Shown: piece by piece, positions 6,049 to 57,788 of the stretch
Numbering within the stretch: the stretch's first letter is position 1
Layout: each line of letters opens with the position of its first letter
Origin: Schmidtea nova
Lineage: Eukaryota
Reading direction: 5' to 3'
NCBI GenBank assembly: GCA_044892505.1
Contig: CM097883.1
Span: 391,592,001 to 391,656,000 of the forward strand
DNA: 64,000 bases
Notes under the pieces: model-generated
What the model was told of the DNA's origin: nothing
The model's database searches: none
The model's input: the letters and a program-made list of their open reading frames with translations, nothing else
Program-made: the position numbers and the translations under genes

Positions 6049-9000
6049 TCAAAGGCCGCACCGACTAGATCTTGGTCTAGAATAGGTATAGTCTTTAGAA
6101 CTCTGAGGTAGTCTTTCTGATTGAATTATTCTGTTATCTTTTTCCAGTTTAGAATTTTCGATTTGTTTCATATCATTTTCCATTCTTTCAACAGTTTTTT
6201 GCTCTTTTAACATTCTAACAGAAACCGATTCACCTTGCTCTTTCACACTGTAAAACATGTGACCTGAATCTGCAAGCCATCTGGCATCAACGAAGGTTAC
6301 AAAATTCATATACTCCTTTGTAGTCATCAGAAGTTCATGATATACTACATAATCTGCATTGAAAGCCATATTGTAAAGAGAACTGGTTGGATGTAAATGG
6401 CACACAACACCACTACGCAGGTTTACATATTCTCCTAGGCCTTTCCATCTAGCAGCTTGATTGAAATACGCTGAACAAATACAGCGTCTGATTTCATCGA
6501 AGTTTCTAGTTGAAAGTAAAGGCATTTTTGACTTGATCATTATTTCTTTCAGTTGTTGCCTCACTTCTCGCACCCGTTTCATTGACTTATAATGTATATA
6601 ATATTTCTTGCAAAAATTCGACGAGTACCCTGAATCGCGCCAAAGTCGGTAAACATTGAATAATGTTAAATGATCCGATTCGGCTACTTGGAATTTTTCG
6701 TGGGCAGCATCAGATTGCTCTCGGTAACCCATGGGCCTTGAAAATACGGATGGCACGCTAAGCATCGAGACGATTGTTAACATTTCTTCTGAACAACCAA
6801 TTTCGATAGATGTAATAAGCATTTTTGACAAAGATGGATCCAAAGGAAATTCTGACATATTTCTTCCAAATGTAGTCAAATTTCCGACATTGTCCAATGC
6901 ACCCAGCATCCATAAATGATACATAGAATTCAAAATATTATCCTGGGGTGGTGAATCCATAAATGGAAATTTCATTAAATCTTTTATGTTGAGGGACTTT
7001 AGAAGTAACACAACATTAGTCAAATTGGTTCGCTGAATTTCTGGAACGGTCATGGGTAGCATGTCTTCTTCGTATTGCTTTATAGTATAAAGCCTATAGC
7101 ATATGCCTGGTGCAGTTCTACCTGCTCTACCAGCCCTTTGATTAGCACTGGCTTGACTTATTGGATAGACTTGAAGTGAATCCATTCCCACCCGCGAATT
7201 ATAAACTTTCATCTTACAATATCCGTTATCAATTACGTATCTTATGCCATCAAGAGTAACTGAAGTTTCGGCAATATTTGTAGACACAATACAGCGTCTA
7301 AATCCAGATTTATTAGTTTTAAATATTTCTGATTGTTTTTCACTAGACAATTGAGAATATAATGGAACCACTATAAGTTGCGGTGGATTTTTATCCTTTA
7401 GATTTTCCAAAGTTTCAACAATTTTTTCACAAGTCACTTCAACGTCTTCTTGACCGCTCATAAAAATTAAAATATCACCATTATTAACATCGGAACCTAA
7501 ATGGGTATCAACGGCTTTATTAACTGCCTTTGCAACAGGATCAAGAACACTGGATTTTTCATACATAACATTAACTGGAAAAGTTCTGCCCGGTATTCTA
7601 AATATTTCACACTTTCCAAAAAACCTAGAGAATTTGTCTGCATCCATTGTAGCAGAAGTTACTATAAGACGCAAATCGGATCTTCTTTGTATGATTTCTC
7701 TTAACAACCCAAATAAGATATCAGTATTCAGAGTCCTTTCATGAGCCTCGTCCATTATTATGACAGAATATGTATCAAGATCTTTATCACGAAGACTTTC
7801 TCGGAGTAAGATACCATCCGTCATGTATTTAATTACTGTATTGTCGCCTTTACAATCTTCAAATCTAATGGAGTATCCAACTCTCTCACCCAATTTAGTC
7901 CCAACTTCATCCGCGACTCTCTTTGCTACAGACACAGCAGCCACTCTTCTAGGCTGTGTACAACCAATAACCCCACGCCGATGAAAATTTTCTTCAAGCA
8001 AATACTGAGTTAATTGAGTCGTTTTACCACTACCTGTTTCTCCAACAATAATTATTACTTGATTTTCTCTAATGATACGCATTAAATCTCGCCTAACTTT
8101 GAATATTGGAAGACGTTTCCTTTGTTCATCAATGGTCAACTTTTCTTCGCAATCCATTTCCTCATTATCCGTAATTTTGTCACAAAATTTCATCGAATCT
8201 TTGAAATTTATTTCATTCCAATTATCTTCTTTATCTTTTGTTTCTAGACCCATGATTTTACCGTAATTAGTGCCTGTCATGTCCAACCCTCGCTTTTGAA
8301 GTTTTAGTTTTTCTTTGACATCTCTATAAGCAGAAACCACCTGACTACCATTTTTTGCTATTTTAGCCATATCGGAATTTTCATCTTTCACCGGTATTAC
8401 GGGCTCAAATTGTTTTGTAAAGATTATTCGACCATCTAAAAAAGGAGGTAGGATATTATGAACGTGTAAATGTATTCTGTCTTCTCCTGTATCCTCATTA
8501 TCAATGTGAATATCAAATTTCTTTCTAACAGCTGCACCAGAAGAAATTATTTTTCCTTCTTCCCAAGCTCTGTTGCTTTCTTCATATTGCTGTGCTCTGG
8601 CAGTTTTTCTGGATTTTGCTACATTTGATTGGTTTTGTAGCTGTTTCTTTTTTTTCTTTTCTAAGTTATCGTCTGAAAATTCTGCAAACGGATTATAATC
8701 CATTCCGTCATTTAAATACCATTCAATATCTAGTTCTTCCTCTTTTGGAGACCATTTAGCTTCAGATCTTACCGATTGATCAAAGTTACTATTTACACTG
8801 CCGGATCTTTTAAATAAATCGTCATCAACATCCCAAGTACAAGCTGAAGGCGTTTTTATAGATGAATTGATTCTCGGTGTTCTTATTTCCGAAACTTCTC
8901 TTTTAGAATCATGATATGAACTTGAAGGAGTCGGTTCTTCCCACTGCTTATGTCGGTCAATCTCATTATGTTTAGGCAATTTCAATTTAGAATCTTCTGA

Positions 9001-9147
9001 TTTCCCATATTTTCGTTTCAATTCTCGTTGCTTCCTTTCATCTTCACGTTTTTTATATTCAACTTCTACAAGTTTATCATTTATTGGAGTTGGATAGTCA
9101 TGCGATCGGTAATTGCGCTTTTTAGTGATTGGTATTTTAAAATTCAT
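6049..9147 (-). CDS. PRP16: Pre-mRNA splicing factor ATP-dependent DEAH-box RNA helicase PRP16 (DHX38), single exon, 1032 aa
   Basis: Motifs GETGSGKT, IIMDEAHER, TSAT, STNIAETS, QRAGRAGR, followed by HA2/OB regions. The N-terminal FTKQFEPVIPVKD...AKNGSQVV block and RRSDLRLIVTSATMDA match PRP16 rather than PRP2/22/43. Confidence 0.93.
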   Translation of the reverse strand: MNFKIPITKKRNYRSHDYPTPINDKLVEVEYKKREDERKQRELKRKYGKSEDSKLKLPKHNEIDRHKQWEEPTPSSSYHDSKREVSEIRTPRINSSIKTPSACTWDVDDDLFKRSGSVNSNFDQSVRSEAKWSPKEEELDIEWYLNDGMDYNPFAEFSDDNLEKKKKKQLQNQSNVAKSRKTARAQQYEESNRAWEEGKIISSGAAVRKKFDIHIDNEDTGEDRIHLHVHNILPPFLDGRIIFTKQFEPVIPVKDENSDMAKIAKNGSQVVSAYRDVKEKLKLQKRGLDMTGTNYGKIMGLETKDKEDNWNEINFKDSMKFCDKITDNEEMDCEEKLTIDEQRKRLPIFKVRRDLMRIIRENQVIIIVGETGSGKTTQLTQYLLEENFHRRGVIGCTQPRRVAAVSVAKRVADEVGTKLGERVGYSIRFEDCKGDNTVIKYMTDGILLRESLRDKDLDTYSVIIMDEAHERTLNTDILFGLLREIIQRRSDLRLIVTSATMDADKFSRFFGKCEIFRIPGRTFPVNVMYEKSSVLDPVAKAVNKAVDTHLGSDVNNGDILIFMSGQEDVEVTCEKIVETLENLKDKNPPQLIVVPLYSQLSSEKQSEIFKTNKSGFRRCIVSTNIAETSVTLDGIRYVIDNGYCKMKVYNSRVGMDSLQVYPISQASANQRAGRAGRTAPGICYRLYTIKQYEEDMLPMTVPEIQRTNLTNVVLLLKSLNIKDLMKFPFMDSPPQDNILNSMYHLWMLGALDNVGNLTTFGRNMSEFPLDPSLSKMLITSIEIGCSEEMLTIVSMLSVPSVFSRPMGYREQSDAAHEKFQVAESDHLTLFNVYRLWRDSGYSSNFCKKYYIHYKSMKRVREVRQQLKEIMIKSKMPLLSTRNFDEIRRCICSAYFNQAARWKGLGEYVNLRSGVVCHLHPTSSLYNMAFNADYVVYHELLMTTKEYMNFVTFVDARWLADSGHMFYSVKEQGESVSVRMLKEQKTVERMENDMKQIENSKLEKDNRIIQSERLPQSSKDYTYSRPRSSRCGL

Positions 9148-9482
9148 AAAATTTTAATTAAATAATTTAAATTTAAATTTACAAACAAATTATTCGTAAT
9201 AAAATGTCAATCATTTTAAAATTTGTATTAAAATTTATGAAAAATTTTATTTTGTAATAAAACTTTGAATTTAAAATTAAAAAACAATAATTTTAAAATT
9301 CAGCAATCTTTATAACTATTTATAATTTTTTTGTAAATTTGTTATTTCTAATTTTTTATTTAATAAATAAATAAACTTTTTGTATGTTTAAAAATAAATA
9401 TCAGCATTCGGCTGTTTTACTGAAATATTTTACATTAATTTTTTGATGTAATATTTAAAAGGATTTTTTTAATCACTTATAT

Positions 9483-13296: not shown

Positions 13297-31625
<18,329 letters not shown>

Positions 31626-33037
31626 AAGTTAGAAAATTATGTCTGACATCAAATTTTATTTCATTTGTTTGAGAAAATGAATCATTGTGTTGAATGAATT
31701 TGATTTATTTATTTCGTTTATCTATAATAAATGGTTTACTTGAACTTGTCTTTAATTTGTTAATAAATCTGCTTGATTGCGAATGGGCCGAATTGCTATC
31801 CACGTTTCCAAGGGAACCGTGCAATCATAGTTTACCACTGTGTGCCTGTTACAGTACAGCGTTAAAAATGTTGCACAATTGGCAAATACATGGAAAAATC
31901 AAATGCCGTTACCAGAGTTGCTCTGATATATTGTAACGGGTTCCAAGACTGTCGTAGAAGATTTCTGTCCCTTTTCGTCTCTCATTTATTTAACATTCAT
32001 CCAATAATCGTAACTCCTGGAGAATCATAACAATTTGTGGAGATAGTTTACTTCATTGTATCGTCATCGTATTTTATCATAATCCTTTATCAACAAACAA
32101 TTTAATCAGAAAAACAAACTAAACTATAATTTTTTACAACAATAAAAACAAAACGAAACAGAAAATATTATTGTTAAGTAATCTGAATAATTGGTTGTCT
32201 TAAATCGATTGATTCTTATTCTTTACTCTTTCCGAACCAGATCTTCTAGTCTGGATTCCCCACAGCGTCGTTTATACACAAATAAAGATTTACCGAGACA
32301 AAAATGATATAGAGAATTTATATAACTTTATGCTTACTATATATTTGTGTGCAAAACATTTTGTTATTTATTAAACTTTTCACAGACCAGTGTTTGTCTT
32401 TTTGTTTATATAGGACATCAAGTTGAATAAAAATTCGAAAACTAAAAATAGCATTTTTAGTTGGGTTAATATTACTTCTACTATTAAAATAAATGTCTTT
32501 GCGATTCCTTTCCTGATGAAGTGCAGAAGATGTTCATTTGAGCGAAGTTGATTTACGAGGTGGATGCATAGTCTCGATAACTTTTATTATGTCAGAACTT
32601 TTGTATAGTTGTGAAAAATCAATGAGCTTTATATCGATACAAATAATTGCTGTAATAAAATATTAATAATTTTAATTTGAACAACCTTGTGCTTGGCCAA
32701 GCCACTTCTCCAGGTATAAGATGAAGCATGATTGGATGTTTGCGCTCATTTCAATGAAAAAATGGATCAGAAAGCTGAATAAACCCTGGATAACTAATGA
32801 CTCACCGAAGTGACTAATGATGGGACAACATATCGCTGGACAATAATCAGGCGTGTGGAAATTCTGATTAACCCCTTTCTTCATGAATTTTTTGTTTATA
32901 TTTAAAAAATATTTTTAAGGTGTAAAATTGAAAAATAAAAGACACGTATTTTTTATTTTTGAATTTTTTATATTTTTATATATTCAAAATCTTGACAGTT
33001 TTTGGTACTAAATTAGAATAAACAGTGGTGAATTTTG

Positions 33038-34378: not shown

Positions 34379-34793
34379 TTAAATCGGAAATATTATTCAT
34401 AAAAAACTTTTAAAATTTTGATTTATAATTTTGGGTATACGAAATTTCCAAACGATATAGCTTGAAAATTTTGTGTATACTTGTTTGGAAAATTCGCATA
34501 CGATCAAAATTAATTTTTTTAAAAATATATAATTCTATTATCAAAAATAATATATTATGAAAACCTAAAAAAATTTCGAATTAAATTTATAGAGTATAAA
34601 AATTATAAATCTAAAAATTTTATTATTATATTAAATAGTTACAAATTTTTAAAATTCTAATTTCAAATTAATCCTGAACTGATAAAAGTAACTAAAGAGA
34701 AACTAAAAGTTTTTATTCAATTTGAATAATGATTAATGTCTTAATATAGAATATTAAAACAAATCATTATTAAATATATAACATTCTTCCCCT

Positions 34794-35558
34794 CTAGGTT
34801 AAGTATCGTGACGGTACTTTTACTTGTCTTCCAGATCGGGTAGTCGATTCGCTTCCTGCTGGTTCTGTTGACGATAAACTGTCTTCAAATGTAGTCTCGG
34901 AATACCCGAACGTTTCTTGGGTGTCTTTCCCACTTTCAAATTCTGTACCGGTCGTATCAGCTGAGCTATTTGAACATGGTGCAAGGTGACTCGTCGATAC
35001 TGTGTCTGTCCTTCCATCTCTGTGTTGTACTCTTGCATAGTACGGCGAAATTGTCTCGATCAGTTTGACCTCATCGACAAGTGGATCATTTTTATAGCGA
35101 ATGTGGCGTTTTAGTAGGATGTTTTGATCAGTATTTCGTAGAAATTCTGGTAAATCACATCCAATTACGGACGCTCGATCAAATTTAAACATTCGATCGT
35201 GAGGTGTCGAATTAGTAGAGACGCACAGCAGTGATCTCATTGATGAAAGGGATACGTCCAATACTTTTTCCCAATGCTCCTTGCTCATATTGTTTTCTTT
35301 TAGGGCTAAGTTTATCGTTTTCAATAGAATTCCGTTAATTCTTTCGCATTGACCGTTACCTTGAGGATGATAAGGCGTTGTACGTGTTTTCGCCACTCCG
35401 TGTTTAATTAGAAAGTCATTGAATTGTCTGCTTTCGAATTGTGCTCCTCTGTCGCTATGTACTGACGAAGGTGAACCAAACAAGGTAAATAAACTGAACA
35501 TGTGTTTTATTACGGTGTCAGAATCAACGTTAGCACAAGGAAAGGCAAAAGGGTACAT
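34794..35558 (-). pseudogene. Integrase core/C-terminal fragment lacking the HHCC zinc finger and first catalytic Asp
   Basis: YPFAFP..VHSDRGAQF..TTPYHPQGNGQCERIN; the N-terminal part is absent; no chromodomain. Confidence 0.88.
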
Positions 35559-37783
35559 TCGACGATTGCCGCGGCCTCTTTTTCAATGATGGAGTGATTC
35601 CTTTCGGACTTTGAGAGTAAACGAGAAAAGAATGCAATCGGTCGGCCGTTCTGACTCAATACTCCGCCCAATGCATGGTCGGATGCATCGGTTTCAATAT
35701 CTAAAGGTTGATCTTGAGTTGGGGAATGTAGTGAAGCAGTTTGTAATTTGGTCTTCAGTAAATGTATTGTTTCGATGCATTCATTTGGCAGTGTGTTGCT
35801 TGACGTGAGTTCTTTACGAGAATCAGTTAGTATTCTCGTGTATTCTGAGCATCGTGGGATCCATTTTGAGTAATATCCAAAAAAACCTATTAAACGATCC
35901 ATTTCTTTTGTAGACGCTGGAATTGGAAGGTCCATGAGAGCCTTGAAACGGTCAGGATCTGGCCTTATTGATTGGTTTTCAATTACGTGTCCTAGAAATG
36001 ATATAGACGTTGTAGAAAACTTACTTTTGCTTTCGTTTATTTGTAGATTTTTTAATTTAGAGGCCTTTAGAAATTCTTTAAGGTTTTGATCGTGCTCTTC
36101 TTTATTTTTACCACCAATTATTATGTCGTCGAGATAAGCAAACGTTGACTGAAGATTGTGCTCTTGGATGAATTTATCGATGATTCTCTGAAAAATTGGG
36201 ACTGCGTTGGTGCAACCGAAAGGTAGTTTGGTAAATTCATATAATTTACCCTGTGCTTCGAAAGCAGTTAGTTGATAGTCTGATGGTTGAATTTGGACCT
36301 GATGATATGCTGACTTGAGGTCCACCTTACTGAAAATTGTGTTTTTTGCTATTTTAAAGAGCAGATCGTCAATTCTAGGCATTGGGTATGAGTCAAGATT
36401 AGTGTAACGATTGATTGTATTTGAGTAATCTATTACGAGCCGTTGTTTGCTGTTCTGGTTGATGGCGAAGCACTGTGCTCGCCAAGGACTTTGGCTTTCT
36501 TGAATGATTCTGTCGGAGAGGAGTCTCGATATTTCTTGGCTGATAAACTCTGAATTTTGTGAGGACCGTCGTGATGGCATAGCGATTGGTTTGATTTTAC
36601 TTATGTCAACTCCTGGCAAGAGCGGATACGTGTCACATGTCATTGTCTTGAGAGCTAGAGATAGTGTGATCGGATGTCTATCGCCACCAAGTTCTAGATT
36701 AATTCTCGAATGTCTTTTTAGGATGTCCATTCCAATTATCACTTTAGTGACCAGTGATTTGGAGACTTGGAAATGTGCCTCGTAGACCTTGTTTGCCAAC
36801 ATTAACTTTCCATAGTAGGTACCTAAAGTTGAGGATATCGATTTATTCGCAAGGAGAACCTGTTTTACTTCTTTGTGATTAAAGGTTAGATTCTTACTAT
36901 TGAGGAATTCTTCTGACACAAAGGACAAATCTGATCCCGTATCAATTAATGCTCGAACTGAGTTTCCATCGAGAAAAGCCTCAACTAAAGAATTTTGGGC
37001 ATTGATTGTTGCTAATCTAGAAATAGAGCCACTCTGAATCAGTCCGTCAACGTCCATGTTTGTTTCTTCAGTAGAGATAGACGCTATCTTTTTAGCTAAA
37101 CATACCGGACTCCAGTGACCTTTCTTCTGGCATTTGTTGCAAACAGAGTTTCTTGCTGGGCAACTAGATCGTGAATGTTTAGATTTTCCACACCATTGGC
37201 AGCCAGTAGTCATTGCTGATGTTGTATAAAGTGATCTGTCTACAGTTGGCTCTGACTGCTGATCCTGTCGAAGATAGTTAGAATCTTTTATTGCAGATTC
37301 TAGAGACATCGCAAGTGTAACCATGACTTGGAGGCTGACGTTTTCTAACTCCAAGAGTCTTTGTCGAATTTCATTTGAGCTGATTCCAAAGACTAATGCG
37401 TCGCTTATCATTAGATTATGATGTTCTTCTGCAGAGAGAGCTGGAGTTGGACACTTGTGAACTGCAACTGTGAGTCTTGTTGTAAAGTCTTCGATTGTTT
37501 CATTGTTCTCTTGCATCATTGTTCTGATCTTGAATCGCATGAGAGTTGATGAGGACCTCTTGACATGCCTTGCTATTAACTTTTGCATTGCTTCTTTGTA
37601 ATCGCTGCAATGTTCCAAGGTGATGAAAATGTTTGATGGCACCAACGAGAGAAGAGCTTCTAAACTGTCGTTGTCTGATAATGCCAGTCTTCTTATGTAT
37701 GTCTCGAACACACGCTTCCATTGGAGAAATTCATTTTCAGAGGCATTTTCCGGAAGAGCTTTTTGAAAGATTTTCAGATTCAT
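35510..37783 (-). CDS. Gag-protease-RT-RNase H (RNase H truncated)
   Basis: Zinc knuckles CQWCGKSKHSRSSC and CNKCQKKGHWSPVC, protease LIDTGS, RT LPFG/YLDD, RNase H ETDASD; homology stops at EKEAAAIVE. Confidence 0.9.
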   Translation of the reverse strand: MNLKIFQKALPENASENEFLQWKRVFETYIRRLALSDNDSLEALLSLVPSNIFITLEHCSDYKEAMQKLIARHVKRSSSTLMRFKIRTMMQENNETIEDFTTRLTVAVHKCPTPALSAEEHHNLMISDALVFGISSNEIRQRLLELENVSLQVMVTLAMSLESAIKDSNYLRQDQQSEPTVDRSLYTTSAMTTGCQWCGKSKHSRSSCPARNSVCNKCQKKGHWSPVCLAKKIASISTEETNMDVDGLIQSGSISRLATINAQNSLVEAFLDGNSVRALIDTGSDLSFVSEEFLNSKNLTFNHKEVKQVLLANKSISSTLGTYYGKLMLANKVYEAHFQVSKSLVTKVIIGMDILKRHSRINLELGGDRHPITLSLALKTMTCDTYPLLPGVDISKIKPIAMPSRRSSQNSEFISQEISRLLSDRIIQESQSPWRAQCFAINQNSKQRLVIDYSNTINRYTNLDSYPMPRIDDLLFKIAKNTIFSKVDLKSAYHQVQIQPSDYQLTAFEAQGKLYEFTKLPFGCTNAVPIFQRIIDKFIQEHNLQSTFAYLDDIIIGGKNKEEHDQNLKEFLKASKLKNLQINESKSKFSTTSISFLGHVIENQSIRPDPDRFKALMDLPIPASTKEMDRLIGFFGYYSKWIPRCSEYTRILTDSRKELTSSNTLPNECIETIHLLKTKLQTASLHSPTQDQPLDIETDASDHALGGVLSQNGRPIAFFSRLLSKSERNHSIIEKEAAAIVECTLLPFLVLTLILTP

Positions 37784-39569
37784 CTTGATTTCAAATTGAA
37801 TAAAATTGAACTGATAAAAGTAACTAAAGAGAAACTAAAAGTTTTTATTCAATTTGAATAATGATTAATGTCTTAATATAGAATATTAAAACAAATCATT
37901 ATTAAATATATAACAAATCCATCAAATTAATCCATCAAATTATCCATATCTTATAGTTGATTTCATTTTATAAAATTCCCAAAATTATTAAATAGTTATA
38001 TTATTTCATTAAAGTATCCTCCTAAACCTGAGAAACAACTATAAACAATATTTGCAAATCAAAATATCCTTATTACTCATTAGCATCTTCTTTATCTAAT
38101 ACCACACACGCAAATTTATTTATCCTATAAATGAATTCAAATTATATCGTTTCACTCATTACCATCCCATACACAGCATGCTGCATCCAGAGACTTTATA
38201 CAAAAATCCTTTCATTTATGTTCGTCGTTAAGTTACTGATAACACCCAATAACATTAATAATTTTATTTGCAAATAATAACATCCCATCATACTGATCAT
38301 TTATTGTAACATCCTATATAATAGTAACATAAGATATAATAACTAATTAGGTTGCGAGATGAAATTTTCCAAACGACTTTTATATAATTTCAATATAAAA
38401 TTGTCATATAGTATTTATTATTGAGACCTGTTTTTTGTGTTTATTCAAGACGGGGGGTTACAAAATAAATTAATAAAACAATTTAAAATTTTTAATGCGC
38501 ATATAAATAGTGAATAGGTGAAAGAGAGACATGAGACAGAAATTTTTTTCAAATTAGCAACATGACAATCGTTGCTAGTTGCTACAGCCTCGGTGTTGAT
38601 TTGAAATTCTAACATTAAAATTTAATATAAATTTTTAATTAATTTTGAGAGCATAAAATGAACAATTCATTGCACTATGACTCGTATTTAAATAAGATTT
38701 GCATAAAACTTTAAGTTGAAATTGAATAATCGAAAGAATTATGAAAATAATAGTCAATTGGATTCAAAATTACAGCAATTGAATAACACCGAATATATAT
38801 AATTTTTTCTGAGAATTAGATCCCCGAGTTAAGTGGTGTTCAGTATTGATTAAAGAATCATGTGGTGTTAAGGATAAATGAAAATGTTTGCTTTATTGAG
38901 ATTATTTAGATTTTTCCCCTGAAAATTAATGTTTTATTTGCAACAATTGAATAATATTCGTTTTAGATTCATCTGACAAATCAAGTTAACATCCTATTTG
39001 ACTGAAGGATTTGTGAAGTAAGACTGCGTGCCGCGCGTCAAGTTTTTATTGGCTTTAATCTAACTTTTTAAAAGAATGGCAATATCATATTTCTCAGTTG
39101 AAGTCAAAAGTTCATCAATTAATGAAAATGATTGGATTCATTTTTCCAAAATAATGAAATCCTTCAATAATAAATTAAATTATTTTATTTTAAACTAGAT
39201 TACACATAAAATATCAAAACGTACATTAAATATCACAAAATATCATTACATACATATAGATAATTGTCAGATACAAGAAATATTATCACAAAATATTAAG
39301 AATACAATATTAAGAATAAATTGAGCTATGACATCAATAAATCTGATATTATCTTATAACAAATTTATGTTCAAGCTTTTTTTCTAGAACAAAGACCATG
39401 AGTCATACAAAATCGGATGACTTATCATTTTGAAGCATGGCTCACCCTTTACAAAACCCATGAATGACCTTGATGACTCATAGCTTCACGGACAACTCTG
39501 ATTGTCTGTGCCGAAGAACATCCTTCACATTACTGTAGAGTTTTCCTTAAAATTGTTGAGGATACCTAA

Positions 39570-55729: not shown

Positions 55730-57788
55730 ATGAACAAAAGAAAATCTCAAGTTTGGGACTCTTCAGAAAATGAATTCTCAGCAAGCCAAATGCAATATTG
55801 ATTGTTGCCAAAAAATTATAAGTAAAGGTGGTAATACAACAGCGATAATAAATCATTTGAAAACGCACAGTATTGAAATTAAAAAAATATTTAATGAAAG
55901 TCCAACCAAAAGGGTTAAACCTTCTGCTGCAACTCCTCAACCAATGTTAGATTTCATACGACGAGAATCTTTGAATGAAATATTCGCAAAATGTGCAGCA
56001 AAAGATGGATTTTCTTTTCGTAGTATGGTAAAATCTGAAGCAATCAGAGGATATGTTACAAGCCGTAATTATACAATGCCAAAAAGTGCAGTTACCATTC
56101 AAAATTACGTTATGCAATTTTTTAATGAGAAACGTGAAGAAATGATAATCGAAATATCAAATTTGTTGAAGGCTGATAATAGATTTAGCATAACGGTGGA
56201 CGAATGGACTAATATATTAATGCGCAGATATTTGAATGTAACCATCCATTCTAAAACAAAAGATTTTGTTTTAGGTCTTATACACATTCAAGACCGCTGC
56301 ACTTCAGAAAAGACTAAAGAACTGGTGACACAAGGACTGCTTGAATTTGGTATAAAATTAGATACAGATATCGTTGCGTCCACTCATGATGGTGCTAGTG
56401 TTATGGTGAAATACGGCCAAATAATCGAAGTAGAGAGCCAGCTATGTTATAATCATGCAATACATTTAGCTATAGTTAAGATTCTCTACAAAAATAAAAA
56501 TTTTATAGATATCGAAACTGAATCCATAAACCAATATGAAGATGACGCAGATTTTTTTTTGGATTATGAAGATGATGAAGAGGATATTAGTTTTGGTGAT
56601 GAAAATTTATTGTTTGAGAACACCATTACAACAGCACCAGTAATACGTGAAAATGTAAAGAAATCATTGGATAAAATGCGCAAAATCATAAAATTTTTCA
56701 AAAAATCTGCGGTTCGAACTGAGATTTTGAATAAACACGTAATTAGCCAAGAAGGAAAAGTTCTTAAACTAATGCAAGACTGTAAGACCCGCTGGAATAC
56801 ACTTGTAACGGCCGTAACTCGATTTCAAAAATTACGTATATGTGTCAATCTTGCTTTGAAAGAGCTTGGTGCGGAAAAATTTCCAGATGAAAATATTGCT
56901 ATTTTAGTCGAAGTGGAAAGTGTTCTAGAACCTTTAATGCTAGCAGTTAAGGAATTAAGCAAACAAGATTCCGATCTAATTACTGCTGAAGGAACACTTA
57001 TTTACGTTTTCTAAAAATTGAAAAAGGTAAACACAATTCTATCAACAGAAATTTTAGAAACTCTGACAATTGAAATAGACCGACGTAGAAACAAAGAAGT
57101 TATTTCTTTGCTACTATTTCTTCATCATGGTAGTTATCCGAAATCAAATGAATTTTTTTCGTATTCAACAAAAATTATTATAAAGCTATCAGCAAAAAAA
57201 ATTAAGTCGCCTATATTCTGATCCTGTAGAAACTCTAGCTGATGAAGCTGATGATCAAAGAAGCAGTAACAATTTGTCAGGTGAAGTTATTGAGATTATT
57301 GAGAAAACTGCGTACGACGAACTAAGAGAGTGTGATAGTTCATTTACTGCACCGAAAACAATAACTGCCCCCATACATCAACTAAACATTGAGAAGGAAT
57401 TTAAGCTGAGTGAAGCTAACGGAAAAAGAACAGCGTCGTTGGACTATTTATATCGGGCTCTGATCACTATCAGTCCTACATCTACTACTTCAGAGGGAGT
57501 ATTTTCAGTTGCAGGTAATATTATCACAAAACTTGGCAGTCGACTATATCCAAAAGCACTAAATGCATTATTATTTTAAAGATATTACTTTACTTCTAAT
57601 AAATAAATGGGTAAATAAATAAAAAATGCAATATTGGCTAAATGTTTTGATTTTTAATGTGTTTTTTTAATATATTATAAAATTGAGGAGATTTTTCGGG
57701 TTATCCGGGTATCCGGGTATCCGGGTAATTGAAAAAAAAATGACTCGGCTACCCGGGTAGCAGTTTAATCGGGTATTTGGACACTCTA
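55730..57788 (+). mobile_element. Decayed hAT (Ac-type) transposon with BED finger; right end intact, left TIR not found
   Basis: KSQVWD..CNIDCCQKI..NHLKTH (BED), SITVDEWT, THDGASVM, CYNHAIHL, KTRWNT, TSEGVFS; several frameshifts/stops; subterminal ccgggta repeats and terminus gggtatttggacactcta. Confidence 0.9.

Follow-up and report, generated by a model that had tools for sequence, protein, structure and literature searches.

Self-priming, in which a long terminal repeat (LTR) retrotransposon initiates reverse transcription with its own RNA, has its precedent in Tf1, for which it has been demonstrated (PMC7175516, PMC4600332, PMC11042837). The first 11 nucleotides (nt) of the Tf1 RNA pair and RNase H cuts the RNA (PMC7175516), a DNA copy of the primer arises at the 3' terminus of the complementary DNA (cDNA) (PMC11042837), and three duplexes form a "pretzel" structure (bioRxiv 2022.12.06.519325). 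Tf1, Tf2, Tj1 and the Tf1/sushi chromoviruses are alike in having no transfer RNA (tRNA) site and in carrying post-LTR sequence complementary to the LTR interior. Self-priming has been predicted for the TAR (Houba, Osr-1) Copia elements and the Tcn1 plant chromoviruses from a complement of at least 10 nt located 0-5 nt after the LTR (PMC6317226), and possible unusual priming was described for the amoebal element Skipper. So far self-priming has counted as characteristic of the Tf1/sushi chromoviruses and, by prediction, of one plant Copia lineage; the literature we consulted described it for Tf1/sushi, Tcn1 and TAR, and we found no description in it for a non-chromovirus animal Gypsy clade. 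Here we report on a minus-strand Gypsy element (37915-34675, 3,241 nt) in a 64,000-nt stretch of the Schmidtea nova genome (GenBank assembly GCA_044892505.1, contig CM097883.1, positions 391,592,001 to 391,656,000; hereafter the window). The best reading of its sequence, in which we have considerable confidence, is Tf1-like self-priming by the element's own RNA.

Pairing at the 5' end and comparison with described systems

Read in element orientation, the sequence TTTTATTCAATTTGAA at 37805-37790 was the exact complement of positions 37858-37843 within the 5' LTR (37807-37915, minus strand, 109 nt, TG...CA), with a single A (37806) between the LTR and the complement. We refer to the stretch within the LTR as the arm (37843-37858), the putative RNA self-primer, and to its 16-nt complement as the primer site (37790-37805). 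The gag ATG was located 23 nt behind the 5' LTR, and there was no TGG-type tRNA primer-binding site (PBS), the first TGG being 87 nt downstream within the leader/gag. The positions of the arm and the primer site, the one-base spacer, the lack of a TGG-type PBS and the distance to the ATG had been given in an initial annotation, which proposed the element as a candidate for self-priming, and all were reproduced.

Perfect complements of 16 nt were absent from dinucleotide shuffles of the LTR (0/1000; mean 5.6, maximum 11 nt), and with one mismatch allowed this length was reached in 1 of 200 shuffles. In the window, which contains (AT)n runs and long inverted repeats, 40 of 18,140 sliding positions (0.2%) had at least 16 complementary nt. 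RNA folding predicted the duplex with a mean pair probability of 0.94 and, as a prediction only, a short inner helix (37842-37840 with 37812-37810) in the loop between the arm and the primer site (37810-37842). The 3' end of the arm read AATAAAA and was 36 nt from the LTR end, so the arm likely includes the poly(A) signal (AATAAA, 37844-37849), a feature absent from the initial annotation. The initial annotation had also placed the arm near the transcript 5' end on the basis of a TATA-like sequence, TATATTAA (37880-37873). This argument was weak, because the motif is too close (only ~4-15 nt upstream) to the likely 5' ends and the LTR is very AT-rich.

Having no tRNA PBS and a post-LTR complement of the LTR that exceeds 10 nt, the element carries the features by which self-primed elements are recognized, including those used in PMC6317226. 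TAR, in contrast, is a Copia lineage and Tcn1 a chromovirus lineage, and both are non-animal. Compared with Tf1, the duplex in the window element and its relatives is longer (14-27 versus 11 nt) and the loop is just 20-52 nt. With regard to the pretzel, folding here predicted the principal duplex plus a short inner helix, without a consistent outer duplex. Unlike in Tf1/sushi elements, the arm ends in a poly(A) hexamer, the ATG in most families follows the primer site immediately, chromodomain and Tf2-type SH3 domains are absent, and the reverse transcriptase (RT)-RNase H sequences form a separate clade. One fungal-type chromovirus reference, read by eye, had its own 10-nt self-complement, with the arm well upstream of AATAAA. 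Tf1 reportedly requires a stem-loop in the unique 5' region (U5) of its LTR, which the predicted inner helix recalls.

Fixed register and co-variation of the pairing across families

An RT search of the host genome gave 150 listed matches, mostly belonging to family A, that of the window element. Host families B (RT ~75% identical), C (~55%) and D (decayed) had LTRs of 94-116 nt and the same CA-A junction as family A. Each family had an arm of its own sequence that was mirrored behind the LTR, with lengths of 16 nt in A, 20-21 nt in B, 20-25 nt in C and 18 nt in D. The arms and primer sites of families B, C and D showed compensated indels and substitutions, the kind of change for which the initial annotation had proposed that related families be checked. 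Decayed representatives (L127, L034 (B) and L325 (D)) failed the perfect-match test and passed with one mismatch.

Eighty metagenome loci were also fetched, of which 18 had a flanking repeat (13 true LTR pairs, three contig-end overlaps and two other repeats); in the other 62 no LTR pair could be detected, and these were left unscored. Complements of 14-19 nt containing no more than one mismatch were present in all 13 loci with two true LTRs (0/200 shuffles each), and their arms ended in TAAA, or a one-base variant of it, 20-52 nt from the LTR end. Four TGG-type tRNA-primed controls had 6-9 complementary nt, inside their own shuffle range. The complement started at offset 1 in 15 of 17 representatives and the spacer was A in all 17, the order being nearly always CA, A and then 14-27 complementary nt, and this register was kept by families whose RTs were 36-75% identical to that of the window element. 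At the arm end, most relatives had the hexamer AATAAA or ATTAAA, whereas L095, L096 and L100 had GTTAAA and L152 had TTTAAA. Loci L159 and L161 differed at a single base in both LTRs, and the matching partner base in the primer site was changed with it. A related family in assembled contigs of one sequencing run had a one-base insertion within the primer site, and L102, L104, L110 and L152 had, by eye, the same pattern as the two-LTR relatives. Folding predicted, as a prediction only, the short inner helix by the predicted cut site in most families. Together, the retention of the pairing in relatives, the lack of TGG and the variation of the arm along with the LTR supported the candidate self-priming that the initial annotation had proposed.

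A clade member on a circular metagenome contig (L097), in which the LTR end is undefined, had a 14-nt self-complement that did not end in a TAAA hexamer. In L133, just 20 nt separated the arm from the LTR end, which would leave hardly any space for U5 and for the first strand transfer.

In an RT-RNase H tree (42 rows, 300 columns, LG+G4, no mixture model) from which Tf1 and sushi were absent, the 26 members of the lineage formed their own clade on a long stem (100/100). Beside it were chromoviruses (98/97) and pairs of references that we take, from their motifs, to be Mag-like, CsRn1-like, 412-like and mdg3-like; the tree had no resolved deeper order. A grouping of the clade with two fungal-type chromoviruses was rejected by the approximately unbiased (AU) test (p 0.016). 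Constrained sisterhood was not rejected for all chromoviruses (p 0.096) or for Mag (p 0.36, with two Mag-like references). No chromodomain or Tf2-type SH3 domain was detected in the integrase part of the window element or in the 42 homologous proteins scanned, and such domains were present in three reference chromoviruses. These findings bore out the initial view that the element lacks a chromodomain and appears to be a Gypsy branch different from that of Tf1. By the sequence features tested, the lineage is outside Tf1/sushi, and an independent origin of self-priming in the clade is likely on this tree without Tf1 and sushi.

Elements of the Mag lineage resemble the window element in their compact organization in one frame, their short LTRs, their paired zinc knuckles and their 5-base-pair (bp) target-site duplication (TSD), and these features were observed in L411 and L412. 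In contrast to the window element, which has no TGG, two Mag-like references carry TGG tRNA sites, and they fell outside the clade in the free tree. A Mag-type pattern scan of the host genome gave 0 matches, and a protein-pattern scan of viral contigs for the clade gave no match. The best 120 homologues were mostly single polyproteins of ~1,200 amino acids, a few of them named from Hydra, shark, crustaceans, insects and tunicates. Comparison with the PDB found the Ty3 RT to be the nearest structure and gave no lineage placement, and a homologue atlas look-up returned generic retrotransposon clusters only. MolGy and PolGy have been described as newly named or as yet nameless mollusc and annelid Gypsy clades outside known lineages (PMC6238403, PMC8556966), and the main texts of these two papers mention neither the PBS nor self-priming. 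The window lineage may be one of these clades.

One-way overwriting of leaders and the source of the primer

For family A, 122 loci were fetched, of which 107 had a readable 5' junction and 15 were dropped as truncated or mis-mapped; internal haplotypes defined four subfamilies (76 copies) and 31 unassigned older copies. At least 16 perfect nt were kept in 92 of the 107 copies, with complement lengths of 16, 17, 20, 23 or 27 nt. The spacer was A in 106/107 copies and T in 0/107, although T would lengthen the stem inward. Extended complements were found in 7 of the 76 copies in defined subfamilies, five among the 42 copies of the young subfamily (private divergence 0.56%) and two among the 34 older ones. 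Two young copies, L236 and L244, had three substitutions matching their own LTR allele, which produced a 27-nt complement and the loss of the start codon. The TSDs and LTR haplotypes of these two copies differed and they had no private change in common; by these sequence features they are independent young insertions. The expectation for such copies from point mutation was 3e-7. L028 had an extension of 3 nt, L015, L021, L248 and L260 had single-base extensions, and in family C one copy reached 25 nt while its siblings had 20.

The changes had a polarity. None of 106 readable LTRs was altered towards the leader, and neither the reverse change nor inward extension was seen. Overwrite events were not commoner in older subfamilies, and the tracts ended at 27 nt or less. 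We infer that the overwritten leaders are the footprint expected from copying an LTR-derived RNA primer during plus-strand synthesis, with the copy then annealing to the minus strand. The LTR bases copied into the leaders of sister copies suggest that RNA 5' ends are spread over ~37859-37869 (minus strand) and not exactly at 37858.

If the element is self-primed like Tf1, transcription would start ~17-27 nt before the arm end, and the RNA 5' end would fold back onto the primer site across a 37-nt loop. The cut in the RNA would lie directly after AAUAAA(A) and, as in Tf1, would probably be made by the RNase H of the element, and the freed 3' end of the capped 5' RNA would prime minus-strand DNA. 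Plus-strand synthesis would then copy the primer, so that the primer site would be re-templated from the LTR and the leader occasionally overwritten. The 5' poly(A) signal would be concealed within this duplex and the 3' copy left free, a masking that is probably a side effect of the pairing.

Several observations weigh against this account. The perfect 16-mer was lost in 15/107 family A copies, and in L095 both LTRs carried a variant of the arm without a counterpart in the primer site. Six copies of the same subfamilies had changes in the extended stretch that disagreed with the LTR, including one C>T present in two copies, which makes the single-base extensions weak cases. L208 carried the 27-nt form, which agreed with the other LTR allele rather than with that of its own 5' LTR. 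For 21 of the 31 unassigned older copies, the longer complement may be the ancestral state, and the family A copy tree was star-like, so that leader states could not be ordered. Overwriting could also stem from fold-back of plus-strand DNA, in which case the ends of the tracts would not necessarily coincide with the cap; fold-back, too, would depend on the primer site having been copied from a primer resembling the arm.

Among other explanations, we consider it improbable that the primer is the arm from the 3' repeat, of the same or a co-packaged RNA, after trimming of the tail. The arm does occur in both LTRs, and the start site need not then be at the arm; the limit of 27 nt on the overwrite tracts nevertheless speaks against such a source. 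In L095 and L208, moreover, the primer site and the daughter LTR were out of phase, as would fit separate sources, and the 3' repeat would be required for the first strand transfer. Hairpins mask the 5' poly(A) signal in some retroviruses, and to an explanation in which the duplex does only this, priming being left to something else, we assign a chance as small or fractionally smaller. Although AATAAA or ATTAAA stands at the arm end in most families and the complement occurs solely at the RNA 5' end, masking would not require a register fixed one base from the LTR end and does not explain one-way overwriting, and the pairing was kept where the hexamer is non-canonical (the GTTAAA and TTTAAA loci above). 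It would also leave the element without a primer, and the ~120 RT copies with normal TSDs indicate that replication works despite there being no other primer site.

Template switching during host DNA replication could perfect an imperfect inverted repeat, making the pairing a mutational by-product. The arm is AT-rich and partly palindromic in families A-D and the L028 extension could be a 3-nt slippage, but changes that are one-sided, outward only and not enriched with age, together with a register held across families with such divergent RTs, make this explanation very improbable. Least credible of all is priming at the site by a fragment of a host tRNA or by some other small RNA. The initial annotation had called for comparison of the 16-mer with host tRNAs; the best match to the primer site was 3-4 nt in a direct comparison that covered two isotypes only (Lys and Arg), and this narrow coverage is the point in favour of a tRNA. 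Against it, there is no TGG, no Rfam family reached the gathering score within 37600-38000, and the arm and its site differ by family along with the LTR, which no tRNA could track. Tf1-like self-priming thus remains our preferred reading.

We give an even chance to a broader proposal, namely that a large, animal-wide, non-chromovirus Gypsy lineage evolved self-priming separately, that its poly(A) signal forms the primer 3' end, with one duplex both priming and blocking early polyadenylation, and that the primer site is re-templated every cycle, with overwritten leaders recording the transcription start. The named relatives of the lineage come from proteins of cnidarians, arthropods, tunicates and a shark. 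If the proposal is true, tRNA independence arose or persisted more widely among Gypsy elements, many "no PBS" Gypsy families dropped by annotation tools would be explained, and such elements would be beyond the reach of tRNA-fragment silencing. Overwritten leaders would provide a genomic read-out of the primer that needs no bench work and could be checked in any multi-copy family, as well as a precise prediction of start and cut sites.

At the 3' ends of family A copies, the 3' LTR was followed by a primer-site copy in 0 of 47. In L278 (family B) and L305 (family C), the polypurine tract (PPT) and 3' LTR were followed by A and 21 or 15 nt of primer-site sequence, and then by unrelated DNA. These tails may derive from a primer copy that was kept at the cDNA end or from a tandem, and do not discriminate between readings. 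Six of the 47 family A 3' ends (L175, L181, L200, L201, L209 and L215) were in (AT)n runs, a hint of insertion into microsatellites.

Structure of the element and other features of the window

The element had all the features of a Ty3/Gypsy LTR retrotransposon, namely LTRs, a TSD, a PPT and the order protease, RT, RNase H, integrase. On the minus strand, the 3' LTR (34675-34783, 109 nt, TG...CA) was 100% identical to the 5' LTR and carried a copy of the arm (34726-34711), and a PPT (34784-34795) was located upstream of it. The 5-bp TSD, GGATT, was at 37916-37920 and 34674-34670. Gag, which by eye had two zinc-knuckle-like motifs, protease, RT and a truncated RNase H were in a single frame (35510-37783), with the remaining integrase, consisting of the core and a C-terminus without a chromodomain (34794-35550), in a different frame. 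Compared with three sister copies, the window copy lacked ~510 nt between RNase H and integrase, with the deletion junction at 35551-35556, where the contigs of other copies show a loose end. The 37 two-LTR copies of the family were 3.6-3.9 kb in length, with a mean LTR identity of 98.2% and a 5-bp TSD in 30.

The host genome (1.25 Gb, AT-rich, eukaryotic; G000) also contained a tRNA-primed Gypsy family (L047-L050) with identical-type RT and different LTRs of ~1 kb in different copies. Elsewhere in the window, a frame of 426 codons without a Pfam match (55734-57014, plus strand) was situated among 741-nt repeats, and long imperfect terminal inverted repeats at 16254-17818 are probably the remnant of a DNA transposon. 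A 111-bp perfect inverted repeat with a 1-nt spacer was found at 24398-24620, and a tandem array of a 30-nt unit at 31104-31663 had open frames on both strands. An uninterrupted frame of 1,034 codons (6049-9153, minus strand) encoded a DEAH-type RNA helicase.
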